Origin: an uncultured Bacilli bacterium
GTDB taxonomy: Bacteria > Bacillota_I > Bacilli_A > RFN20 > CAG-449
Assembly (NCBI GenBank): GCA_947626895.1
Contig: CANQTY010000001.1
Coordinates: 2,477 to 66,476, forward strand
DNA: 64,000 nt
Reading direction: 5' to 3'
In this document: piece by piece, positions 6,050-61,554 of the stretch
How positions within the stretch are numbered: position 1 is the first letter of the stretch
How the letters are laid out: the number at the start of each line of letters is the position of its first letter
The notes under the pieces: generated by a model
The model's input: the letters and a program-made list of their open reading frames with translations, nothing else
What the model was told of the DNA's origin: nothing
Database searches by the model: none
Program-made: the position numbers and the translations under genes

Positions 6050-6226
6050 GAATTAAATCACCATTTTACTATATGCAAAAGGGTGGAAATAATTATCTTA
6101 TTGGTTTAATAAAAAGGTTAAATATGTTGGAATTGTTAAGATTTTATCTATTCTTCCAATTGAACTTCTATTTTTCATTTTAACATTGAATTTTATTCAC
6201 TTTCATGCTTGGTATTGCAAATAAAT

Positions 6227-6322
6227 TTACATTTTTTCAAGCGACTTTTTTGGAAATTTTACATTTTTTCAAACGACTTTTCATAAGTTTTTACATTTTT
6301 TCAAGGGAGATTTGCTTTATTA
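6227..6322. repeat. three tandem direct repeats, exact 32-nt period (core TTACATTTTTTCAARCGACTTTT)
   Basis: TTAC starts at 6227, 6259 and 6291; lies between the rpsU 3' end and the murC-like 5' end (upstream of murC on the minus strand). Confidence 0.8.
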
Positions 6323-16549: not shown

Positions 16550-16769
16550 AGACAAATACCTCCATGAAATCAAAAAAACATATTTTTTGTAAAAGGTAAA
16601 GAGTTTTTTAAAAAAGCGTAAAAATGTTACTTTTTGTCTCATTTTCGTCCCATTTTGGTGTCATTTTGTTGCACCAGAATCTCATTTTTCATTTTTTTGC
16701 TCTTGTCATCAAATTTCTTGATTTTGTATAAGATAAAAATTATACTTACTTTAATCTTAAAAGGAGTCT

Positions 16770-17750
16770 ATGATGAAGAAGTTTGTTGCTTTATTAATTC
16801 CATTTTTATTCTTAGGAGTCAGCTGTGAAAAAGAAAATAATCATAAAATTATTTCTTATTTCCATGAAGATTTAACTTCTCTAATTTATGTTAATCAAAA
16901 TGAAGTAAAGACTTTAGCTAGTAATCAAGAAGATTTTATTTTATTTGTCTTTTCCGATTGTGGTTGCGGAGGCCATGGCGATAGTGTTTTTTCAACTTTA
17001 AAAACTTATATTAGTGAAACTCATCGTTTAATATACGCTATTGGGGATACGGATTATAAAAAACTTGATGTTACATTAAGTGACACTTTTCCTTTATATC
17101 CGACAAATCAAATGGATGAAATCAATAAAATTCCTGCTTTTTATTTTTATCATGGTGGAAAATTAACTTATGAACGTTATTATGAAGAAAGTTTGCTTAC
17201 AGTAAAAGGAATAACCTCGTTGATGAATGATTATATGACCCCATATGGCATGAATATTATTAATGATATTGTTCCTTATACTTTTAAAGGATATGATTTT
17301 TTTAAATTTAACGAAGAAACTACAACAAAATTAGATCAAAAAATTCAAGGAAATAACACAATTTACTATTCTTGGAAACAATGTGGAGATTGTCGTTCTT
17401 TGAAAGGAATTTTAAGAGATTATTATCTAGATCATAATACTTTATTATATATGTATGAAGTAGATTACTTTAGAAATAGTGACAATAAAGAAACATTATG
17501 GGATAATGAAGAAGGATTCCCCTATCAATATCAATTTGCTAACTATCGAGGAGGGAAAGTACCAAGTCTAGTCACTTATGAAAATGGTTTAAAAAAAGAT
17601 ATGATTGTTTATCATAATGATGTCGTTAATGATGGAACAATTGAAACATCTTTCTTTAATGAACTTGTTGGACAAAAATTAAGTGCAGAAGAACAAGAAA
17701 ACTATCATAAGGAAAAAGTACTAGAATACTTATCATCATTAAAGGAGTAA
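16770..17750 (+). CDS. lipoprotein with thioredoxin-like CxxC motif(s)
   Basis: lipobox LFLGVSC|E; SWKQCGDCRSL (Trx-like CxxC) and an earlier FSDCGCGGHG motif; possible tandem Trx-like domains. Confidence 0.45.
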   Translation: MMKKFVALLIPFLFLGVSCEKENNHKIISYFHEDLTSLIYVNQNEVKTLASNQEDFILFVFSDCGCGGHGDSVFSTLKTYISETHRLIYAIGDTDYKKLDVTLSDTFPLYPTNQMDEINKIPAFYFYHGGKLTYERYYEESLLTVKGITSLMNDYMTPYGMNIINDIVPYTFKGYDFFKFNEETTTKLDQKIQGNNTIYYSWKQCGDCRSLKGILRDYYLDHNTLLYMYEVDYFRNSDNKETLWDNEEGFPYQYQFANYRGGKVPSLVTYENGLKKDMIVYHNDVVNDGTIETSFFNELVGQKLSAEEQENYHKEKVLEYLSSLKE

Positions 17751-17752
17751 CA

Positions 17753-18538
17753 ATGAAAAAAGAAGATTTAGATTCTCAATATGGATTATATAAAACCATC
17801 GATTTATTGAAAGACACTCGAGTTAATGTCTTTTGTAAAGCAGGTGGAGGTTTTATCTTTTTTACCTTATTTGTCATTGGCTTTTTTATTGATAATATGA
17901 ATCTTTTATTCCCATTTTCTCAAGGATATTTATTATTTGTACAATATTTATCCTTAATTGTTGGCTTTATTTTATACGCTTTTTTGCATGAACTTATTCA
18001 TTTTTTAATGGCAAGAATTATGAAAATTCATGCTAAAATGAAACCCGCGGGATTATTTCCTTATTGCACCATTGAAGAAGAACTTTTAAGTAAGAAACAA
18101 TATATACTTTTTGCTTTAATGCCTTTTATTTCATTAACCACTTTATTAATTCCTAGTGTGATTTTAGTAAAAATATTTGCTCCTAATTGGTTTTGGTTAC
18201 CTTATATTCTTTTGATGCAAGATGCAGCGACATCCGTCGGTGATTTTGTCGCTATCTTTTATATTAAACGTTACAAAAAATGTTATATAGAAGATAATGA
18301 TGCTCAACTATTAATCTATGTAAAAATGGATGAATTTAAAGAATATCATGATAGTGAAAAAGCCTATTATGAAAAGAAAATGTTAAAGAAAATTAAAAAG
18401 AAAAAAAGAAAAGAACAGCTTAAAAATGCTCCTCTAATGGGTAAAAAGAAATATGAAGAAAGCTTAAAAGAAAAAGGAACTCCTTTAGAGGATACTGACG
18501 CTCAAGATATCGATGATCTTTCTAAATTAGATATGTAA
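17753..18538 (+). CDS. membrane protein with HExxH motif (DUF3267-like putative zincin peptidase), Lys-rich C-terminal tail
   Basis: LHELIHFLMARIM (HExxH) embedded between TM segments; C-terminal KKIKKKKRKEQLK low-complexity. Confidence 0.45.
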   Translation: MKKEDLDSQYGLYKTIDLLKDTRVNVFCKAGGGFIFFTLFVIGFFIDNMNLLFPFSQGYLLFVQYLSLIVGFILYAFLHELIHFLMARIMKIHAKMKPAGLFPYCTIEEELLSKKQYILFALMPFISLTTLLIPSVILVKIFAPNWFWLPYILLMQDAATSVGDFVAIFYIKRYKKCYIEDNDAQLLIYVKMDEFKEYHDSEKAYYEKKMLKKIKKKKRKEQLKNAPLMGKKKYEESLKEKGTPLEDTDAQDIDDLSKLDM

Positions 18539-19128: not shown

Positions 19129-20139
19129 CTAATTAAATAAATCTTCTTCATCATTAGAATAATAATTAGAGATGATATGATCAAAATATTCATAGATGGA
19201 TTTTAGTAAGAGATTATTTACATAATATTCCTTATGAAGGGGAATCCTTTTGTAAAATAAATAGTTGATGCGATTATTGACGCAGCGCTTTACACCTTTA
19301 TTTTTAACTAAAATATTAAATAAATATAAAGTGCTAGTGATTTGTCTTATCGCCGAATTTGCTAGCTTATGTTGTCTTGTTTCTTTAGAAACACCACATT
19401 CAATTAAAAAAGTATTAATTAAAAAATTTGGTGTCCTTTTCACATCTTTCTTATGAAGAATAGATAAGATACAAACACTATGTGCTAAAGCATTTCTAAG
19501 CTTATGGACATCCATCAAGATTGGAATATATTTATGATCTTCTAGATGATAATAAGTGGTAAGAAAATCAAAAAAGTTAATCAGTTCTCCAAAAGATAGA
19601 ATCTTTAAAAATTTACCCAAAGGAAAATTTGTGATTTTTCTTCCACTATCTAGGTTATATTTCAAAAATATATCTTCATAATATACATCATTTTTCTTAG
19701 ACATGATGGAATTATGAATTCTTTTAGGAAACCTAGAATCGTAATAATCTTGATCTAAGAATAAATTTACGATGTTTAATCCATCTTCACCCGGAATTTT
19801 TGACACGAGATTTTTTATTCTTAATTTAAGATTCTCTTCGATTTCGTTTGTCATTTTTTGAAGCAATTCCCTAACTAAAGAATCGACAAGGGATAAATCC
19901 TTTAAATAGGCAAAATCTACATCCATGAATTTTCCTTTAAATTCTCCATTTGGATAAAGTACAAAATTGTGACGATAAGAAACAACCGTATCATAATCTT
20001 TACTCGTCTTCAAAAAATATTCTGCTTCTTGCTCATTACAAAGCTCAAATTTAATATTTTTGCTTTTTAAATAATTAATCACTTCAAAAATATTCAATTC
20101 AGACTCTATAGTTGCAGTAGCAATATTTCCATTCATCAT
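19129..20139 (-). CDS. Abi_2-family (AbiD/AbiF-like) abortive infection protein
   Basis: 336 aa; LSFGELINFF and VHKLRNALAHSVCIL match the Abi_2 family hallmarks (sFG.l motif; R-N-x-x-A-H motif). Confidence 0.6.
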   Translation of the reverse strand: MMNGNIATATIESELNIFEVINYLKSKNIKFELCNEQEAEYFLKTSKDYDTVVSYRHNFVLYPNGEFKGKFMDVDFAYLKDLSLVDSLVRELLQKMTNEIEENLKLRIKNLVSKIPGEDGLNIVNLFLDQDYYDSRFPKRIHNSIMSKKNDVYYEDIFLKYNLDSGRKITNFPLGKFLKILSFGELINFFDFLTTYYHLEDHKYIPILMDVHKLRNALAHSVCILSILHKKDVKRTPNFLINTFLIECGVSKETRQHKLANSAIRQITSTLYLFNILVKNKGVKRCVNNRINYLFYKRIPLHKEYYVNNLLLKSIYEYFDHIISNYYSNDEEDLFN

Positions 20140-20372
20140 TTCACCTCCTTTGCTAATTTATTGCTTTTGACAATTTTAAGTGATCTTTTAACACATGTTT
20201 CTTGTTTCATTCATACTCCTTTCTTTCGCTAGATAGCGAATCAAAAACAAATGTTATGTCATAACACCCTCTATATATTAAATAGAGAATTCGTAAAAAA
20301 AATTGTCAAAAAAAATTAAAAAAATTTTTCAAAGGGTAAAAATTTATCTTTTCATAGAAAATTGCTTCTAGT

Positions 20373-40655: not shown

Positions 40656-41009
40656 ATGTCTTACAAAAATAGTGAAATTGGTAAGAAAATTAAAAAATTA
40701 AGAGAAGATTCTCATCTTACTCAACAGCAATTAGCAGAATACTTAAATGTAGATCAAAGTCTCGTTTCTAAATTTGAAAAAAGCGAGCGTACTATTAGTT
40801 CCGATATATTAACCGAAATATCAATTTTATTTTGCTGTTCATTACATGATTTATTATCAAATGAAGATATTATGCCGAAATTTAATATTGCATTTAGACA
40901 AAGTGAAATTTCGCTTGAAGATTTAAAAGAACTTTCAATTATTCATAAAATTGCGCTAAATCAAGTTAAAATTGATGAATTAAGCAAAGGAGTTAAAAAC
41001 CATGATTGA
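40656..41009 (+). CDS. XRE-family HTH transcriptional regulator
   Basis: LTQQQLAEYLNVDQSLVSKFEKSERTIS is a canonical Cro/C1-type HTH. Confidence 0.85.
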   Translation: MSYKNSEIGKKIKKLREDSHLTQQQLAEYLNVDQSLVSKFEKSERTISSDILTEISILFCCSLHDLLSNEDIMPKFNIAFRQSEISLEDLKELSIIHKIALNQVKIDELSKGVKNHD

Positions 41010-41745
41010 TAAGTTAAAATTAAGTATTTCGACTTTACAAACACGTCATCAATTTGGAGAAGATGACATATCTCCAATTGATATTTTTAGTTTAGTTAAA
41101 GCGATTAAAACATTAACATTAATCATATTTCCCTTTAAGAAAAGCATTAGTGGTTTATGTATTCATAATCCATCATCTTCAATTATTGCAATCAATTCTA
41201 GAATGTCCCTAGGAAGACAGAGATTTACATTAGCTCATGAATTATATCATCTTCTTTATGATCAAGATAAAGAGATAGTTTGTCGTAAGGATTTCTCTTA
41301 TGATAACGAAAACGAACATAGAGCGGATTTGTTTGCCTCTTATTTATTAATGCCTCCATTAGCCTTGCAAACAATGATTCAAAAATATAAAAAAACATCT
41401 AAATATCGCCTTACTTTACATGATATTATTGAAATTGAGCAAACCTATGGAATATCTCATCAAGCTCTTTTAACACGTTTAAAAGAGGAAAAAGAAATAA
41501 ATAGCGATCAATTTGATGCAATGCAAAATGGAGTCATATCTCTAGCAAATCGTATGGGATTTGATTGTTCATTGTATAAGCCATCGGAAGATAAAATACA
41601 AGTATATGGTTATTATATTTCTCAAGTGGATTTTCTATATCAAAATGATATTATCTCCAAGGGAAAATATGAAGAACTATTATTAGATGCATTTCGCGAC
41701 GATATAGTGTATGGTAATGACGAAGGAGGGGAATTTCTTGATTAA
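41002..41745 (+). CDS. ImmA/IrrE-family metallopeptidase (COG2856)
   Basis: HEXXH LAHELYHLL; size and gene order (after XRE) typical of ImmA/IrrE; 8-nt overlap with the XRE gene. Confidence 0.75.
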   Translation: MIDKLKLSISTLQTRHQFGEDDISPIDIFSLVKAIKTLTLIIFPFKKSISGLCIHNPSSSIIAINSRMSLGRQRFTLAHELYHLLYDQDKEIVCRKDFSYDNENEHRADLFASYLLMPPLALQTMIQKYKKTSKYRLTLHDIIEIEQTYGISHQALLTRLKEEKEINSDQFDAMQNGVISLANRMGFDCSLYKPSEDKIQVYGYYISQVDFLYQNDIISKGKYEELLLDAFRDDIVYGNDEGGEFLD

Positions 41746-52543: not shown

Positions 52544-53899
52544 CTACTTTTTACTATTTAATAAGGCAAATTGATAAAAAGGAAGATTATGTATATCTTG
52601 TTCTTCATAGACGATTTTTGAAGATAACTTTAATAAATAAACATCTTTTTTAGATTCATCATTTTTTAATTTATTTAAAGATGGAGATTTTAAATTATTT
52701 CCAGATTTGACCTCTATCGCGGTAATTTTTCCATTTTCTTCTTTAAGAAAATCAATATCCATATCCATGCGATTATAATAATATAATTCATGTTCATATG
52801 GATTTAAGGATAAAATATTAGCAACTAGATTTTCATAAATACCCCCAATATCTAAATCATCGTTTCCATTTAAAACAAGATATCTTTTTTCTTCATGAAA
52901 CATCGACATTAAAATTCCTGTATCAAATAAGAATAATTTAAATGATTCTTCTTTTTTATAGCTTTCTAAAGGAGATTGAATCGTTTTTGTATTGTAACAA
53001 AAAGTAACTAGACCTGCTTCATATAAATAATCTAATGCATCTTTAAATTTTCTAACTCTTCCCCCTTCTTCAACACGATGATACATAAACTTTTTGTTTT
53101 GTTGTTTTAGTTGAAAAGGAATTGAAGCAAAGCATTTTTCTATCTTTAAACTTTCATTATGATTTTCTGCATATTTTCTTATATCTTGAATATATCCTCT
53201 TTTTAAATCCTGCTGAATTTCATATACTTTATGAAAATCATTGGAATTTAAAAATGTAAGAATACATGAGGGTAATCCACCTATAACGATATATTTTCTA
53301 AGCATACCTAATAATGTTTCATGCGTAGAAAGAGAAATATCTTTAGAATTGCTATTCATTCTAATTTGTTCAATAAAGTCTTCACTATAATTAAATGCCC
53401 ATAAAAATTCCTCAAAATCAAAAGGTTTCATTTCTAAATGACTTACATACCCTACAGGATATGAACCATGAAATGAACGCGCTAAAGCTACACCAAGTAA
53501 AGATCCAGAAGCAATCACATGATATAACTTATTTTCTAAAGAAAAGGATTTTAAAGAAATTAAAGCATTTTCACAAGATTGAATTTCATCTAGAAAGATA
53601 AAATATGGATTATTTTCATCATCTTTAAAATCAATATTCATAAAGCGAATATTCATTTGTATTTTATTCATAATCGCTTTAGGAGATAAATCATTTTCAA
53701 AAAATTTTTTTGCTTCAGGAAATAATTCAAAATTGATAGAAATAATCTTATTTGAAGGATAATTTTCTTTAGCAAATTCTTCAATGCTATATGTTTTTCC
53801 TACTTGACGCGCTCCAACGACAAGAAGACATTTTTTCGTTTTTGATGCTTTCCATTCAACTAATGATTTGGTGATTTTTCTTTTCATAATTTTCTCCAC
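52544..53899 (-). CDS. AAA-superfamily ATPase of the COG1373 type (with DUF4143-like C-terminal domain)
   Basis: Walker A VVGARQVGKT; Walker B FIFLDEIQ; 451 aa architecture typical of COG1373. Confidence 0.6.
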   Translation of the reverse strand: MEKIMKRKITKSLVEWKASKTKKCLLVVGARQVGKTYSIEEFAKENYPSNKIISINFELFPEAKKFFENDLSPKAIMNKIQMNIRFMNIDFKDDENNPYFIFLDEIQSCENALISLKSFSLENKLYHVIASGSLLGVALARSFHGSYPVGYVSHLEMKPFDFEEFLWAFNYSEDFIEQIRMNSNSKDISLSTHETLLGMLRKYIVIGGLPSCILTFLNSNDFHKVYEIQQDLKRGYIQDIRKYAENHNESLKIEKCFASIPFQLKQQNKKFMYHRVEEGGRVRKFKDALDYLYEAGLVTFCYNTKTIQSPLESYKKEESFKLFLFDTGILMSMFHEEKRYLVLNGNDDLDIGGIYENLVANILSLNPYEHELYYYNRMDMDIDFLKEENGKITAIEVKSGNNLKSPSLNKLKNDESKKDVYLLKLSSKIVYEEQDIHNLPFYQFALLNSKK

Positions 53900-54012
53900 T
53901 TGCCACTTTTTTATGGATTATCTTTATTTAATATGCCACTTTTTTAGGAATTATACAACATAAAAATGCCATTATTTTAAAAATTTAAAGTCTTAAAATG
54001 CCACTTTTTTTA
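53900..54012. repeat. four direct repeats of ATGCCACTTTTTT at 32-33-nt period in a divergent promoter region
   Basis: GCCAC/GCCAT at 53902, 53935, 53968 and 54000, each followed by a T-run. Confidence 0.75.
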
Positions 54013-54288
54013 ATTTTATCATTTTTTTAACCATATTAGATAATAAAAACGAATAACCAAAAATAGGTTTTTTTATCGTAACTAATCATAGATTTATAGC
54101 TTCATTTTTTAAAATGAGATTCTGGTGCAACATAATGAGACCTATTTGGGATGATTTTGGCACAAAAACCCCTAAATATAGGTAATTTTAAAAAAATGTT
54201 TTTTCTTTAAATATAATATGCTATGGTCAAAAGCAATAAATGATAGATGTATATTTATGGGTAAAAATCTATCGAAAGGAGAAAAAAT

Positions 54289-55566
54289 ATGAACCACTTT
54301 TATGATGAATTTAAAAAACCTACATGTTCAGAACTACTAGACTTTCTTGAAGAAGAATTAAAGGACATTGATTCTACAAAAAAATTGATGATAAGTTTTG
54401 AAATCAGCGCTGTTGCAACTAGAATCGGTGAAAAAGTCAAAGACACATTCACGATTGATTCAAGTGTTTTTGAAATCACACCACTTTTAATCGATTTAGT
54501 AAGACCTCCCTTCGGGGAAATTGGAGAAAAAACTCTGCATAATATTCTCGCGGGTCATGATGATTGTCTTCATATCGTAAACGATGTAAAAGCTCTTAAT
54601 GTTGCGCAAAGCTTTAAGCAGAATCTTACTTCCGCGAGATTGATGATTGACCTTACTGAACAAGGAGTAGAAAAAAAGAAAATGGAAAAAGTTTTAGATG
54701 CCGTCTTAAAAAATCGTGAAATTTATTTTGATGAATACAAAGAAGATATTGCTCTAAATGAGGAATTTAAGTATATTGTCAAGGACTTTAAAAATTTAAA
54801 TGGCGAAGATTATTACAATCATAATCCAAAATATATTGAAGGCTATATTCTTTCTATATCCACGAAAGTGATTGATCTATTTATTGACTATATCAATTTA
54901 ATGAAGAAAAACAAAATGTTTAAATTTGAAATAGAAAAATCCGAATTTTATAGCTATTTTAAAACAAGTATTGATTCTTTTTTAGAAATGGATATTCCAT
55001 CTCAAGCAACAGCATTATCTAATGAGCTAATAAGAATCTTTATAGATGAAATCAAAAAAGATTCGAATCATTTCATACTTAGTGAAAATAGTATATTCTT
55101 TTATTTATTTAATGCATTTCAAAAGATTAAAAATGATGTATTAAACAAAGATTTATCTTATAAAATTAATAAAGGGGCTCAAGAATTAATTATAAAGCAG
55201 ATTTTTGCCAATTATTATCAAAATCCCTTCTGCATGAATGAGGTATTCTTTAAACATTTTTATGGCTCCATCATGGACATAAAAGGTTTACCAAAAAATA
55301 TCTATCAAGATATGAATATGTTTAAAGAGGTCCTAGATATTGAAGATGAAGATCAACTTGCAAAAATAAAAGAAAAAATGGAAGATTTTCTCAAAGAATG
55401 CAGAAAGAATATAACCCAAAAAGATTTACCTAGTTCTTTAAGAGATAGTTATCGCACTATCTATAAGCAATATTTAAAAAGCATTGCATTTTATATTGCA
55501 TGTATGACCGATGAGATGGCTTATAAAGAAAGTGTACTTTTTGAAAAAAATGATGAAAAAGATTAG
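54289..55566 (+). CDS. hypothetical cytoplasmic protein (425 aa), no recognisable family
   Basis: good RBS (AAAGGAGAAAAAATATG); first about 400 nt noticeably more GC-rich than surroundings; upstream region shares a conserved element with the 16190-16549 regulator gene. Confidence 0.5.
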   Translation: MNHFYDEFKKPTCSELLDFLEEELKDIDSTKKLMISFEISAVATRIGEKVKDTFTIDSSVFEITPLLIDLVRPPFGEIGEKTLHNILAGHDDCLHIVNDVKALNVAQSFKQNLTSARLMIDLTEQGVEKKKMEKVLDAVLKNREIYFDEYKEDIALNEEFKYIVKDFKNLNGEDYYNHNPKYIEGYILSISTKVIDLFIDYINLMKKNKMFKFEIEKSEFYSYFKTSIDSFLEMDIPSQATALSNELIRIFIDEIKKDSNHFILSENSIFFYLFNAFQKIKNDVLNKDLSYKINKGAQELIIKQIFANYYQNPFCMNEVFFKHFYGSIMDIKGLPKNIYQDMNMFKEVLDIEDEDQLAKIKEKMEDFLKECRKNITQKDLPSSLRDSYRTIYKQYLKSIAFYIACMTDEMAYKESVLFEKNDEKD

Positions 55567-59996: not shown

Positions 59997-60473
59997 TTAA
60001 TATTTTGCTAACTTTGAAAGAATTAATTCTATATTTGGCTGAGTAGGTATAATTGTAATTTTCAGTTTAATAAGTTCTAAAATTCTTTTTGCTTTCTTTC
60101 CTATTTCTTCCATATCCCTTTCATCTGTAACCATAATGTGTTCATTAAGCCAGCAATATTCACTTTCTATAAAATTTTTAGTAATAGGAAATATTTCTTG
60201 AATTAAAAAGGCTCTTTTAACACCATGAACAAGTTTTGCAATATATAGACCATCATTATGTTTTCCTTGTTCTATTCTTTTTTTCATGACCTTTTCATAT
60301 TTATCCACATTACTAGATAAAGGAATCATCCAATATATTCCATTTTCTTCTTTATAACAATAATAATGAGGTTTTGTTCCATGTTGATTTCTTTTTAAAT
60401 ATGGATCATCCATCAAATCAAAAAATTCATCTTTTATAATATATACTCCATTGATTTTTACTTTCTCTATCAT
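59997..60473 (-). CDS. type III toxin-antitoxin toxin, ToxN/AbiQ-family endoribonuclease (locus 1)
   Basis: about 158 aa; start ATG 60471-60473 with AGGAGA RBS 6 nt upstream; motifs GIYWMIPLSS and KPHYY resemble ToxN/AbiQ (Y.APLTSPK, KRPY); preceded by repeat RNA + terminator. Confidence 0.6.
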   Translation of the reverse strand: MIEKVKINGVYIIKDEFFDLMDDPYLKRNQHGTKPHYYCYKEENGIYWMIPLSSNVDKYEKVMKKRIEQGKHNDGLYIAKLVHGVKRAFLIQEIFPITKNFIESEYCWLNEHIMVTDERDMEEIGKKAKRILELIKLKITIIPTQPNIELILSKLAKY

Positions 60474-60496
60474 CAAAATTCTCCTTTTAAACAAAA

Positions 60497-60629
60497 GTCC
60501 CCCGTATATACTTTAACGAAGGACATATAACTTTCGAGCCAGCCACTTAATGGTTCGCCTGCTGGCCAGCGAAATACTTAACATCCTAGCCATTTGATGG
60601 TTCGCATGCTAGTCAGCGAAAAACTTTCT
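60497..60629 (-). ncRNA. type III antitoxin RNA (ToxI-like), two 47-nt direct repeats plus terminator (locus 1)
   Basis: AGCCAYTTRATGGTTCGCMTGCTRGYCAGCGAAA repeated with 47-nt period (60541, 60588); promoter TTGACT(60664-60659)-17-TAGGAT(60641-60636) on minus strand; terminator 60497-60524 with GU-containing stem + TTTTGTT. Confidence 0.6.
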
Positions 60630-60740
60630 ATACATATCCTAACAAATCAATTTAGTTAAGTCAATATGCAGTTCATTATTTTTTTGTGCATTTAGTATGA
60701 AAATCAATCACATGCTATAGAAAAAAATAATATTCGAAGG

Positions 60741-61220
60741 TTATTGACGTACATTTAACTTTTCTAATATTGCTATCACATCTATTTGAGTAGGCATATA
60801 TCGAACACCATCTTTTAATAACTCCATAATAACCCTAGCCTTTTGTTCGATTTGCTCAACATCTATATCGTTAGTTAATTCTACAAGTTTCCCTTTAAAG
60901 GTATAAGGGCGATAAATGTATTGCTTAGTAATCGGAAACATATCTTGAATCAAAAAGGCACTTTCCTCGTTATCTTTTATCATTGCAATATGAAGAATAT
61001 CACATGGTTTTCCTTCTTCCTCTCTTTTTTGAATAATCCTTCGGTATTTTTCTACACGACTAGATAAAGGAATCATCCAATATATTCCATCTTCTTGATC
61101 CTGTAAGCAATAATAATGTGGCCTTTTACAATGCTTATTACTTTTTAAATATGGATCATTCATCAATTCGAAAAATTCATCTTTAATAAAATACATTCCT
61201 CCTTTTTTTAATTGTCTCAA
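60741..61220 (-). CDS. type III TA toxin, ToxN/AbiQ-family paralogue (locus 2)
   Basis: about 50% identical to the locus-1 toxin (FIKDEFFELMNDPYL..KRPHYY..GIYWMIPLSS); start either TTG 61220 or ATG 61196; GGAGGA RBS nearby. Confidence 0.55.
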   Translation of the reverse strand: MRQLKKGGMYFIKDEFFELMNDPYLKSNKHCKRPHYYCLQDQEDGIYWMIPLSSRVEKYRRIIQKREEEGKPCDILHIAMIKDNEESAFLIQDMFPITKQYIYRPYTFKGKLVELTNDIDVEQIEQKARVIMELLKDGVRYMPTQIDVIAILEKLNVRQ

Positions 61221-61250
61221 TTTTGTCTCATTTCTCCTTTTATGATAAAA

Positions 61251-61417
61251 CTCCCCGCAAATTCACTTTGCAGGGAGTTTCGTCTAGCAATTTATATTCC
61301 GCATGCTAGTAAGCGGAACTTTCGAGCCAGCCACTTAATGGTTCGCCTGCTGGGCAGCGAAATACTTAGCATCCCAGCCATTTGATTGTACGCGTGCTGG
61401 TCAGCGAAAAACTTTCT
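61251..61417 (-). ncRNA. type III antitoxin RNA, about 2.5 x 47-nt repeats plus terminator (locus 2)
   Basis: half repeat 61296-61321, full repeats from 61329 and 61376 nearly identical to locus 1; promoter TTGACA(61452-61447)-17-TAGTAT(61429-61424); terminator hairpin CTCCCTGCAAA-loop-TTTGCGGGGAG + TTTTAT (61251-61277). Confidence 0.6.
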
Positions 61418-61554
61418 ATACTTATACTAGCAAATCGCTTCAAGTATGTCAACAATAATTTATTTTTTTTATAAGGCAAAATTATACACCAATTTATTTA
61501 TCTTAATTAAAATTTAAACTTCAATAATTTAGGTCTTCAAAAATAATCGATTTT

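Follow-up and report, generated by a model that had tools for sequence, protein, structure and literature searches.

An 11-bp direct-repeat array and adjoining predicted promoter precede an MG284/MPN403-family gene and a degenerate dGTPase-like gene in an uncultured Bacilli bacterium

Results

Two inverted copies of an upstream element

The DNA analyzed here (the window) is a 64,000-nt stretch of contig CANQTY010000001.1 (GenBank assembly GCA_947626895.1, positions 2,477–66,476 of the forward strand) from an uncultured Bacilli bacterium. It encodes a 425-amino acid (aa) protein and, elsewhere, a 119-aa protein of the MG284/MPN403 family, and a first-pass annotation of the sequence had proposed that the 425-aa gene is preceded by the second copy of an element shared with the 119-aa gene. 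We located this element at 54111–54168 on the plus strand (copy B) and its partner at 16631–16688 on the minus strand (copy A), upstream of the 16190–16549 gene. The two 58-nt copies are 81% identical, so that copy B indeed mirrors the minus-strand sequence upstream of the 119-aa gene, as the annotation had it; they are inverted with respect to each other, with 37.4 kb between them, and each is oriented toward its downstream gene. Their leading 22 nt (AAAATGAGATTCTGGTGCAACA) are the same, and this 22-mer, with up to three mismatches allowed, occurs exactly twice in the window, compared to no occurrence in 100 dinucleotide-preserving shuffles. Relative to the ATG at 54289, copy B occupies positions −178 to −121, of which the annotated distance of about 150 nt is a fair mid-point.

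While the annotated motif is real, the shared unit turned out to be longer than the approximately 60 nt originally ascribed to it, comprising approximately 115 nt and including both a repeat array and a core promoter. Along an ungapped diagonal without any indel (offset approximately −3 to +113; full modules in Table 1), successive 20-nt blocks of the two copies show 20, 15, 12, 10, 13 and 12 matches and then 4, where the random expectation is a mean of 5.8 matches with a 99th percentile of 11. The homology thus ends a few bases past the −10 element, which fits a promoter module that was duplicated or is jointly constrained.

An array of 11-nt direct repeats is followed by a predicted core promoter

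Each copy contains five direct 11-nt units, in each of which a 4-nt A/T tract is followed by a core (WWWW-TGrrAy; Table 1), and Tandem Repeats Finder reported a period of 11 with 3.5 copies at 16631–16668. Direct-repeat operator arrays have at least two direct cores at helical spacing (10–11 bp); here, both copies have five units with an 11-nt period, and the units are most likely protein-binding sites.

In both copies, the end of the array is followed after approximately 24 nt by a TTAAAA hexamer, which in copy B forms part of a predicted sigma-A-type core promoter and in copy A aligns with a weak one; the spacing between array and promoter is identical in the two copies, again without an indel. 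The copy B promoter is the top promoter-like site predicted in its intergenic region, with 10 of 12 matches. Transcription of the 425-aa gene is predicted to start near position 54224, which would place the array at roughly −60 to −115 and yield a 5′ untranslated region (5′ UTR) of approximately 65 nt with a strong ribosome-binding site (AAAGGAG). The predicted start follows the shared −10 element, approximately 55 nt past the motif, as would be expected if the motif were an operator or activator site upstream of the promoter; we found no support for a start well downstream of, and unrelated to, the motif.

The array is conserved upstream of the 119-aa gene in eight species

For comparison, contigs carrying homologues of the 119-aa protein were fetched, yielding eight species, including that of the window. 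Synteny is maintained among them: dnaE, polA and mutM-coaE are followed by an operon that encodes four to five secreted or membrane proteins without annotation and is headed by the gene for the 117–119-aa protein, and a lipoprotein/DUF3267 gene pair is transcribed divergently from this operon. The same array is present in the intergenic region upstream of the 117–119-aa gene in 8/8 species. The layout is ungapped, with cores in the same register in all eight and no indel over 55 nt, while the sequence between the cores, including unit 2 and the spacer, varies across species. Stacking of 32 units (units 1, 3, 4 and 5 of the eight species) gave the consensus WWWW-T(29)G(23)R(31)g(16)A(27)Y(25). 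Measured from its first unit, the array lies 139, 136, 139, 155, 138, 138, 140 and 136 nt from the ATG of the 119-aa gene, i.e. 136–140 nt in seven of the eight species. The relative with the 155-nt distance (L014, 9842–9907) apparently has one extra 11-nt unit and scores poorly against the array profile. On the far side of the array, a conserved promoter box of the divergent operon (AAAATCAAGT, with TTGATT on the other strand) lies between 28 and more than 100 nt away, depending on the species. The constant distance to the ATG and the variable distance to the divergent promoter indicate that the array is tied to the promoter of the 119-aa gene and not to the divergent one. Conservation of cores, register and position with diverging flanks would fit an operator array.

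A profile hidden Markov model (HMM) made from the seven other species only, when run on the 64-kb window, returned two significant sites, 54108–54167 (E = 7e-4) and 16690–16634 (E = 9e-4), with the next site at E ~1. As this profile comes from other species, its recovery of copy B indicates that copy B is a genuine member of the conserved element class and not a mere look-alike of copy A. Exact searches with a 19-mer (ATGAGATTCTGGTGCAACA) gave a single match among 185,579 species genomes, in Nereida, and three in Joint Genome Institute (JGI) metagenomes, apparently within coding sequence; all are chance matches. The species of the window is absent from both collections and, with no true match in either, the organism is poorly sampled.

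Copy B looks like a recent duplication with intact cores

The 22 nt that are identical in copies A and B take in unit 2, which is unconserved between species, and the closest relative (L010), whose homologue of the 119-aa protein is 68% identical, has quite another sequence there. A unit shared by the two copies but unconserved between species suggests a recent, lineage-specific duplication rather than convergence. These observations indicate that copy B arose by a recent, species-specific intragenomic duplication of approximately 115 nt of the copy A promoter region.

The two arrays differ at 11 of 58 positions, in the 3′ part, where changes have built up since the duplication; seven are A/T swaps within the A/T tracts and four fall on degenerate core positions. 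The T, G or A core positions, 15 in all, are free of differences (P = 0.022), providing modest evidence that copy B is still under selection as a site. At least one further sample (ERZ27249620) also has both copies, copy A in L030 and copy B in L007.

The 119-aa protein has a putative sigma-region-4-like helix-turn-helix

The only DNA-binding candidate encoded in the conserved neighborhood is the 119-aa protein itself. We found 15 homologues at 45–68% identity, all of which (15/15) score above the curated cut-off of NCBIfam model NF045770, which describes the C-terminal domain of the MG284/MPN403 family; the 119-aa protein scores 66.4 bits against a cut-off of 37.3 over residues 62–115. The family owes its name to genes of Mycoplasma genitalium and M. 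pneumoniae, both of which have near-minimal genomes; we know of no described function for it, and a literature search found none. The 119-aa protein matched nothing in Pfam or in a sequence profile search of the PDB, and Pfam Sigma70_r4 models did not match any of 15 members, even at E-values up to 10. At the level of the fold, the best match, a tentative one, is to region 4 domains of extracytoplasmic function (ECF) sigma factors, with approximately 65 C-terminal residues aligning to sigma structures, preceded by an N-terminus of one long and one short helix. As sigma region 2, which mediates core binding and −10 recognition, is lacking, the protein is not a sigma factor by itself. Its putative helix-turn-helix segment (RSTFYRLRKKAIEEF) is nearly invariant among the 15 homologues; such conservation of the putative recognition segment is in keeping with an invariant core motif.

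The 425-aa protein is a diverged dGTPase homologue

The annotation had termed the 425-aa protein an uncharacterized orphan. It indeed has no orthologue in the relatives, and a word-index search retrieved only a 97%-identical variant; however, an exhaustive HMMER search of 1.84 billion representatives overturned the orphan label, revealing 24 remote full-length homologues at 23–31% identity (phmmer E-values from 5e-36 to 1e-4 against the 24 representatives, over residues ~30–413). All 15 homologues tested matched Pfam HD, dGTP triphosphohydrolase (dGTPase) and anti-phage dGTPase models (TIGR01353 and NF041026) and solved dGTPase structures. The 425-aa protein itself scores 36.9 bits with TIGR01353, below the cut-off of 152.35; Pfam HD was not detected in it, and HD_assoc reached 17.2 against a cut-off of 22.2.

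Of the 49 columns that at least 14 of the 15 homologues have in common, the 425-aa protein retains 23. It has lost all six invariant His residues as well as the last Asp of the H..HD..D metal site (H35I, H68I, which turns HD into ID, H72R, H77E, H111Q, H142N and D192T), while the C-terminal MTD..Y motif and several structural motifs of dGTPases and SAMHD1-like HD enzymes are kept. With the metal-site residues that define the HD superfamily replaced, hydrolase activity appears very unlikely. Compared to the 97%-identical strain variant, the gene has 12 non-synonymous and 11 synonymous changes, corresponding to a ratio of non-synonymous to synonymous polymorphism (pN/pS) of 0.24, which points to a maintained pseudoenzyme rather than a decaying gene. 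The 425-aa protein thus looks like a possible pseudoenzyme under purifying selection. A single-sequence AlphaFold2 model was unusable (predicted local distance difference test score 38.5).

The raised G+C content (GC) that the annotation had noted in the 5′ half of the gene is real but modest (0.37 in 54400–54699 versus 0.22–0.27 nearby). The nearest active dGTPase relatives (P0041 and P0046) stem from genomes with 41–45% GC and have no array upstream, lending no support to an ancestral link between array and dGTPase. Two unannotated genes at the corresponding locus of the closest relative (L010) are not homologues of the 425-aa protein.

Table 1. Positions of genes, repeat cores and promoters at the two loci (window coordinates)
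Feature	Position	Strand	Remark
425-aa gene, diverged dGTP triphosphohydrolase/HD-family homologue	54289–55566	+	3′ of copy B
Full module copy B (array, spacer and core promoter)	54108–54224	+	Ungapped diagonal identity
Copy B cores	TGAGAT 54115–54120, TGCAAC 54126–54131, TGAGAC 54136–54141, TGGGAT 54147–54152, TGGCAC 54158–54163	+	
Predicted sigma-A-type core promoter copy B, TTAAAA-N18-TATAAT	54188–54217	+	−35 54188–54193, −10 54212–54217
119-aa MG284/MPN403-family protein, putative sigma-region-4-like C-terminal helix-turn-helix	16190–16549	−	First gene of conserved secreted/membrane operon
Full module copy A (with aligned weak core promoter)	16575–16691	−	Ungapped diagonal identity
Copy A cores	TGAGAT 16684–16679, TGCAAC 16673–16668, TGACAC 16663–16658, TGGGAC 16652–16647, TGAGAC 16641–16636	−	
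Aligned weak core promoter copy A, TTAAAA-N18-AAAAAT	16611–16606, 16587–16582	−	
Conserved divergent promoter TTGATT-N17-TATACT, for 326-aa lipoprotein/DUF3267 operon	16718–16746	+	Far side of copy A

Genomic surroundings and other features of the window

Divergently from the 425-aa gene, 52544–53899 (minus strand) encodes an AAA_14/DUF4143 ATPase that scores 426 bits with the PADLOC candidate phage-defense family PDC-S01. In another strain, the sequence upstream of approximately 53970 is replaced. The defense-like neighbor and the replacement between strains suggest that the 425-aa gene resides in a small, strain-variable, defense-like spot. Between the start of the ATPase gene and copy B, 53901–54010 contains four tandem 32–33-nt units, each with a TGCCAY (at 53901, 53934, 53967 and 53999) followed by a T run; Tandem Repeats Finder assigned a period of 32 and 2.4 copies. 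Read on the minus strand, this repeat (AAAAAAGTGGCAT) reaches the ribosome-binding site of the ATPase gene, and three contigs of another strain end and diverge within it. A sub-threshold match to the Rfam family Clostridium-PBP (32.8 versus 94.4 bits) overlaps 53885–53944.

At the other locus, the products of the divergent operon (16770–18538, plus strand) include a lipoprotein, in which two CxxC-like motifs occur, and a putative zincin peptidase (DUF3267); the lipoprotein orthologue of one relative has a faint PedC-like match. An Abi_2/AbiD-type abortive-infection gene (19129–20139, minus strand) lies 2.5 kb from the locus of the 119-aa gene; the relatives examined have no such gene at the syntenic position. 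The same 16 nt (GTCAAAAGCAATAAAT) occur at 20156–20171 (minus strand), just upstream of the AbiD gene, and at 54226–54241 (plus strand) in the 5′ UTR of the 425-aa gene. We rejected this exact match as a second shared element: the AbiD site has no array, and the match is probably due to chance in A+T-rich DNA.

Elsewhere in the window, a 32-nt tandem repeat with 2.5 copies (TTTACATTTTTTCAAGCGACTTTTCAGAAAAT; 6226–6305) lies in intergenic DNA upstream of dnaE, at a place where rpsU is found in relatives; its units resemble TTTACA-N18-(C)ATAAAAT and may be duplicated promoters. Three co-linear direct repeats of 106–154 nt (60236–61470; 74–84% identity, approximately 750–790 nt apart) suggest two tandem paralogous genes (open reading frames [ORFs] 59997–60494 and 60741–61220). 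Finally, an HTH_3 (Xre-type) repressor gene overlaps a Peptidase_M78 (ImmA/IrrE) gene at 40656–41745 (plus strand). Such pairs are typical of mobile-element or stress-switch modules; this one lies amid housekeeping genes, with no integrase among the nearby ORFs scanned.

Discussion

A model for the shared promoter module

We suggest that the array at 54111–54168 may act as an operator or upstream activating array, in which the 11-bp spacing would set the cores on one face of the helix. The 119-aa protein would be its most likely binder, given that its C-terminal domain resembles sigma region 4, through which sigma factors recognize −35 boxes such as tgaAAC; several monomers could line up head-to-tail on the repeats, upstream of a weak-to-moderate sigma-A-type promoter. 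The protein would thereby control its own operon (autoregulation) and, in this species, the 425-aa gene, with the position of the array favoring activation as the sign of regulation. The approximately 115-nt promoter region of copy A would have been duplicated to the front of the catalytically degenerate dGTPase-like gene. We put the probability of this explanation as a whole, i.e. a promoter module with an operator array that is bound by the 119-aa protein and was duplicated to recruit the 425-aa gene, at about 0.55. As to the proposal of the first-pass annotation that the two loci receive the same regulatory input, the same cis element upstream of both, its conservation in 8/8 species, the profile that picks both copies and their shared geometry argue in its favor and make it the best interpretation, while co-regulation and the identity of the binder are what we infer from these features.

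Several observations weigh against this explanation. The copy A promoter scores only 8 of 12, promoter positions are ambiguous in several orthologues, and core promoter calls are weak at 25% GC, with 7 sites found versus 4.2 expected in shuffles. Within the species, copy A is 100% identical in five samples and thus uninformative; copy B is unchanged in a strain with approximately 4.8% synonymous divergence in the 425-aa gene, which adds little, as the whole intergenic region has diverged little. Moreover, there is no second array within ±10 kb of the 119-aa gene in the relatives, so that a regulon beyond autoregulation is seen in one species only.

Alternative explanations

As the main alternative, the array could be a genuine operator of a different, unlinked factor, such as an OmpR/PhoB-type winged-helix response regulator or a global regulator. 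A 6–7-bp core with a 4-bp A/T spacer, directly repeated with an 11-bp period upstream of a weak −35 element, matches pho boxes and WalR sites, and the 119-aa protein is itself a putative DNA-binding protein. However, the ORFs scanned in the window include no response regulator or histidine kinase, but only a MarR protein, the HTH_3/M78 pair and the 119-aa protein, and the conserved neighborhood of the eight species likewise has no response regulator gene. Of the 32 units, 31 have a purine at core position 3 and none has a T, at variance with a WalR box; the core also differs from the Spo0A box (TGNCGAA) and the Bacillus subtilis PhoP box (TTHACA). As the array in addition strictly co-occurs with the MG284-like gene at a constant distance, we regard an unlinked factor as unlikely. 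Distinctly improbable, in our estimate, is that copy B is a by-product of the duplication, whose core promoter drives the 425-aa gene while the array is non-functional and co-regulation does not occur. Signs of decay are present, in that identity between the copies drops to 69% in the 3′ 36 nt of the array, the last unit reads TGGCAC instead of TGAGAC and A tracts have turned into T tracts; in addition, comparative support for copy B is missing, as the 425-aa gene lacks an orthologue in the relatives. Yet copy B has kept all of its 15 T, G or A core positions (P about 0.02), T tracts replace A tracts also in functional-looking orthologous arrays (L010, L017 and L021), copy B slightly outscores copy A on the profile of the other species, and the interval between array and promoter has no indel.

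Phased A/T tracts might also stimulate RNA polymerase without a dedicated factor, as sequence-independent curved DNA or an UP-like element; tracts every 11 bp at about −60 to −115 would sit where curved upstream DNA is classically found in A+T-rich promoters of Firmicutes. The information, however, sits in the TG..A cores and not in the tracts, where AAAA and TTTT freely replace each other from one copy or species to the next, a change that would alter the direction of bending, whereas the core motif is kept in eight species against a background of 28% GC; we consider such an element highly improbable. We give almost no credence to an element acting at the level of RNA or peptide, be it a 5′ leader structure, a small RNA or a small ORF (MRFWCN..., 23/25 codons). 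Both copies do have an ATG at their start and allow a short ORF, and the copy A complement has a somewhat better fold than its shuffles (z −3.1), but the sense strands do not (z −0.19 and −1.25), RNAalifold found 0 conserved pairs in eight sequences, and Rfam had no family over the element at gathering or relaxed thresholds; in Rfam and tRNA scans, nothing relevant to the element emerged. The small ORF lacks a ribosome-binding site and ranges from absent to 25 codons among species (in L010 it stops after 3 codons), the differences between the copies fall on codon positions 1/2/3 in a 1/6/6 distribution (13 differing positions, 19 codons), which is not a coding pattern, and the predicted promoter lies downstream of the element. 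It is equally hard to credit that the inverted copies are sites of recombination or of a mobile element, such as attachment (att) or inversion sites or a miniature inverted-repeat transposable element. Their inversion at a distance of 37.4 kb and the break in strain-to-strain synteny approximately 140 nt upstream of copy B would fit, but window ORFs scanned against Pfam revealed no recombinase or transposase (they were housekeeping or had no match), terminal inverted repeats and target duplications are lacking, copy A occupies a fixed orthologous position in eight species, and exact-core searches of two large collections returned chance matches only.

Implications

If the 119-aa protein does bind the array, WWWW-TGrrAy repeated five times with an 11-bp period would provide a testable motif, and the MG284/MPN403 family would gain a candidate role as autoregulatory transcription factors. 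The two loci would then represent a clean case of regulon growth via duplication of a whole promoter module, in which drift has since touched only positions unimportant for the cores. Separately, the product of the downstream gene, a dGTPase homologue devoid of an active site but under purifying selection, beside a candidate defense ATPase in a strain-variable spot, is a possible pseudoenzyme. A bolder and, for now, doubtful proposal is that MG284/MPN403 proteins are stand-alone, sigma-region-4-like transcription factors that align head-to-tail along tandem, −35-like TGrrAy boxes at a long distance upstream of a sigma-A promoter, regulate themselves and have here captured a dead dGTPase homologue beside a candidate defense ATPase. 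If true, this would supply a first function and cis motif for the family, along with a case of a regulator that consists of sigma domain 4 alone.

Comparison with known systems

ECF sigma genes are typically autoregulated. The −35 boxes of the B. subtilis ECF sigma factors W, M, X and V have the form tgaAAC(nTTTT), often with a T tract after them (PMC5758882), which the present cores TGAAAC, TGAGAC and TGCAAC with an A/T tract resemble. A region-4-like helix-turn-helix could plausibly read such boxes. Unlike in ECF promoters, there are five tandem boxes here, far upstream of the promoter. Moreover, we found no conserved CGT-type −10 element 16–17 nt downstream of any box, as an ECF-dependent promoter would have, and the conserved hexamers are of the sigma-A type. 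Small phage activators of the ArpU/RinA type are another point of reference: the 119-aa protein shows weak similarity, below any threshold, to phrog_248 (transcriptional activator) and TIGR01637 (ArpU), but members of its family belong here to a conserved chromosomal operon and not to a prophage.

OmpR/PhoB-type sites (the pho box, or the WalR site TGTWAH-N5-TGTWAH) consist of multiple direct 6–7-bp cores with a 4–5-bp A/T-rich spacer and an 11-bp period, and the promoter downstream of them has a poor −35 element. The array shares their repeat period of 10–11 bp; its core differs, with a purine at position 3, and we found no response regulator among the window ORFs scanned or in the conserved neighborhood. 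We also considered a LytTR-type site, in which two 9-bp direct repeats with 12–13 bp between them (a period of approximately 21 bp) lie just upstream of the −35 element, and rejected it: units 1 and 3 are 21 nt apart, yet units 3, 4 and 5 are conserved 11 nt apart, the array ends 24 nt before the −35 element, and no LytTR protein is encoded nearby.

A further parallel is provided by StbA of plasmid R388, which binds arrays of 2, 3 or 5 direct repeats (9 bp with a 2-bp spacer) at its own promoter and several others (bioRxiv 10.1101/2022.04.29.490116). Like the present array, the stbDR operators are short direct repeats with an 11-bp period, found at the promoter of the regulator itself and at other promoters, and are bound by a small, autoregulating helix-turn-helix protein. 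StbA, however, is a plasmid-encoded repressor and centromere-binding protein with PadR-like homology and the repeat TTGCATCAT, whereas the array described here is chromosomal, has the core TGrrAy, lies upstream of the promoter instead of over it and has a sigma-region-4-like protein as its candidate binder; there is no sequence relationship between the two systems. Shared operators and autoregulated small regulators are common, and current understanding is not overturned by the present case: although this element has not been described before, it belongs to a familiar kind of feature, a putative direct-repeat operator array combined with a promoter.

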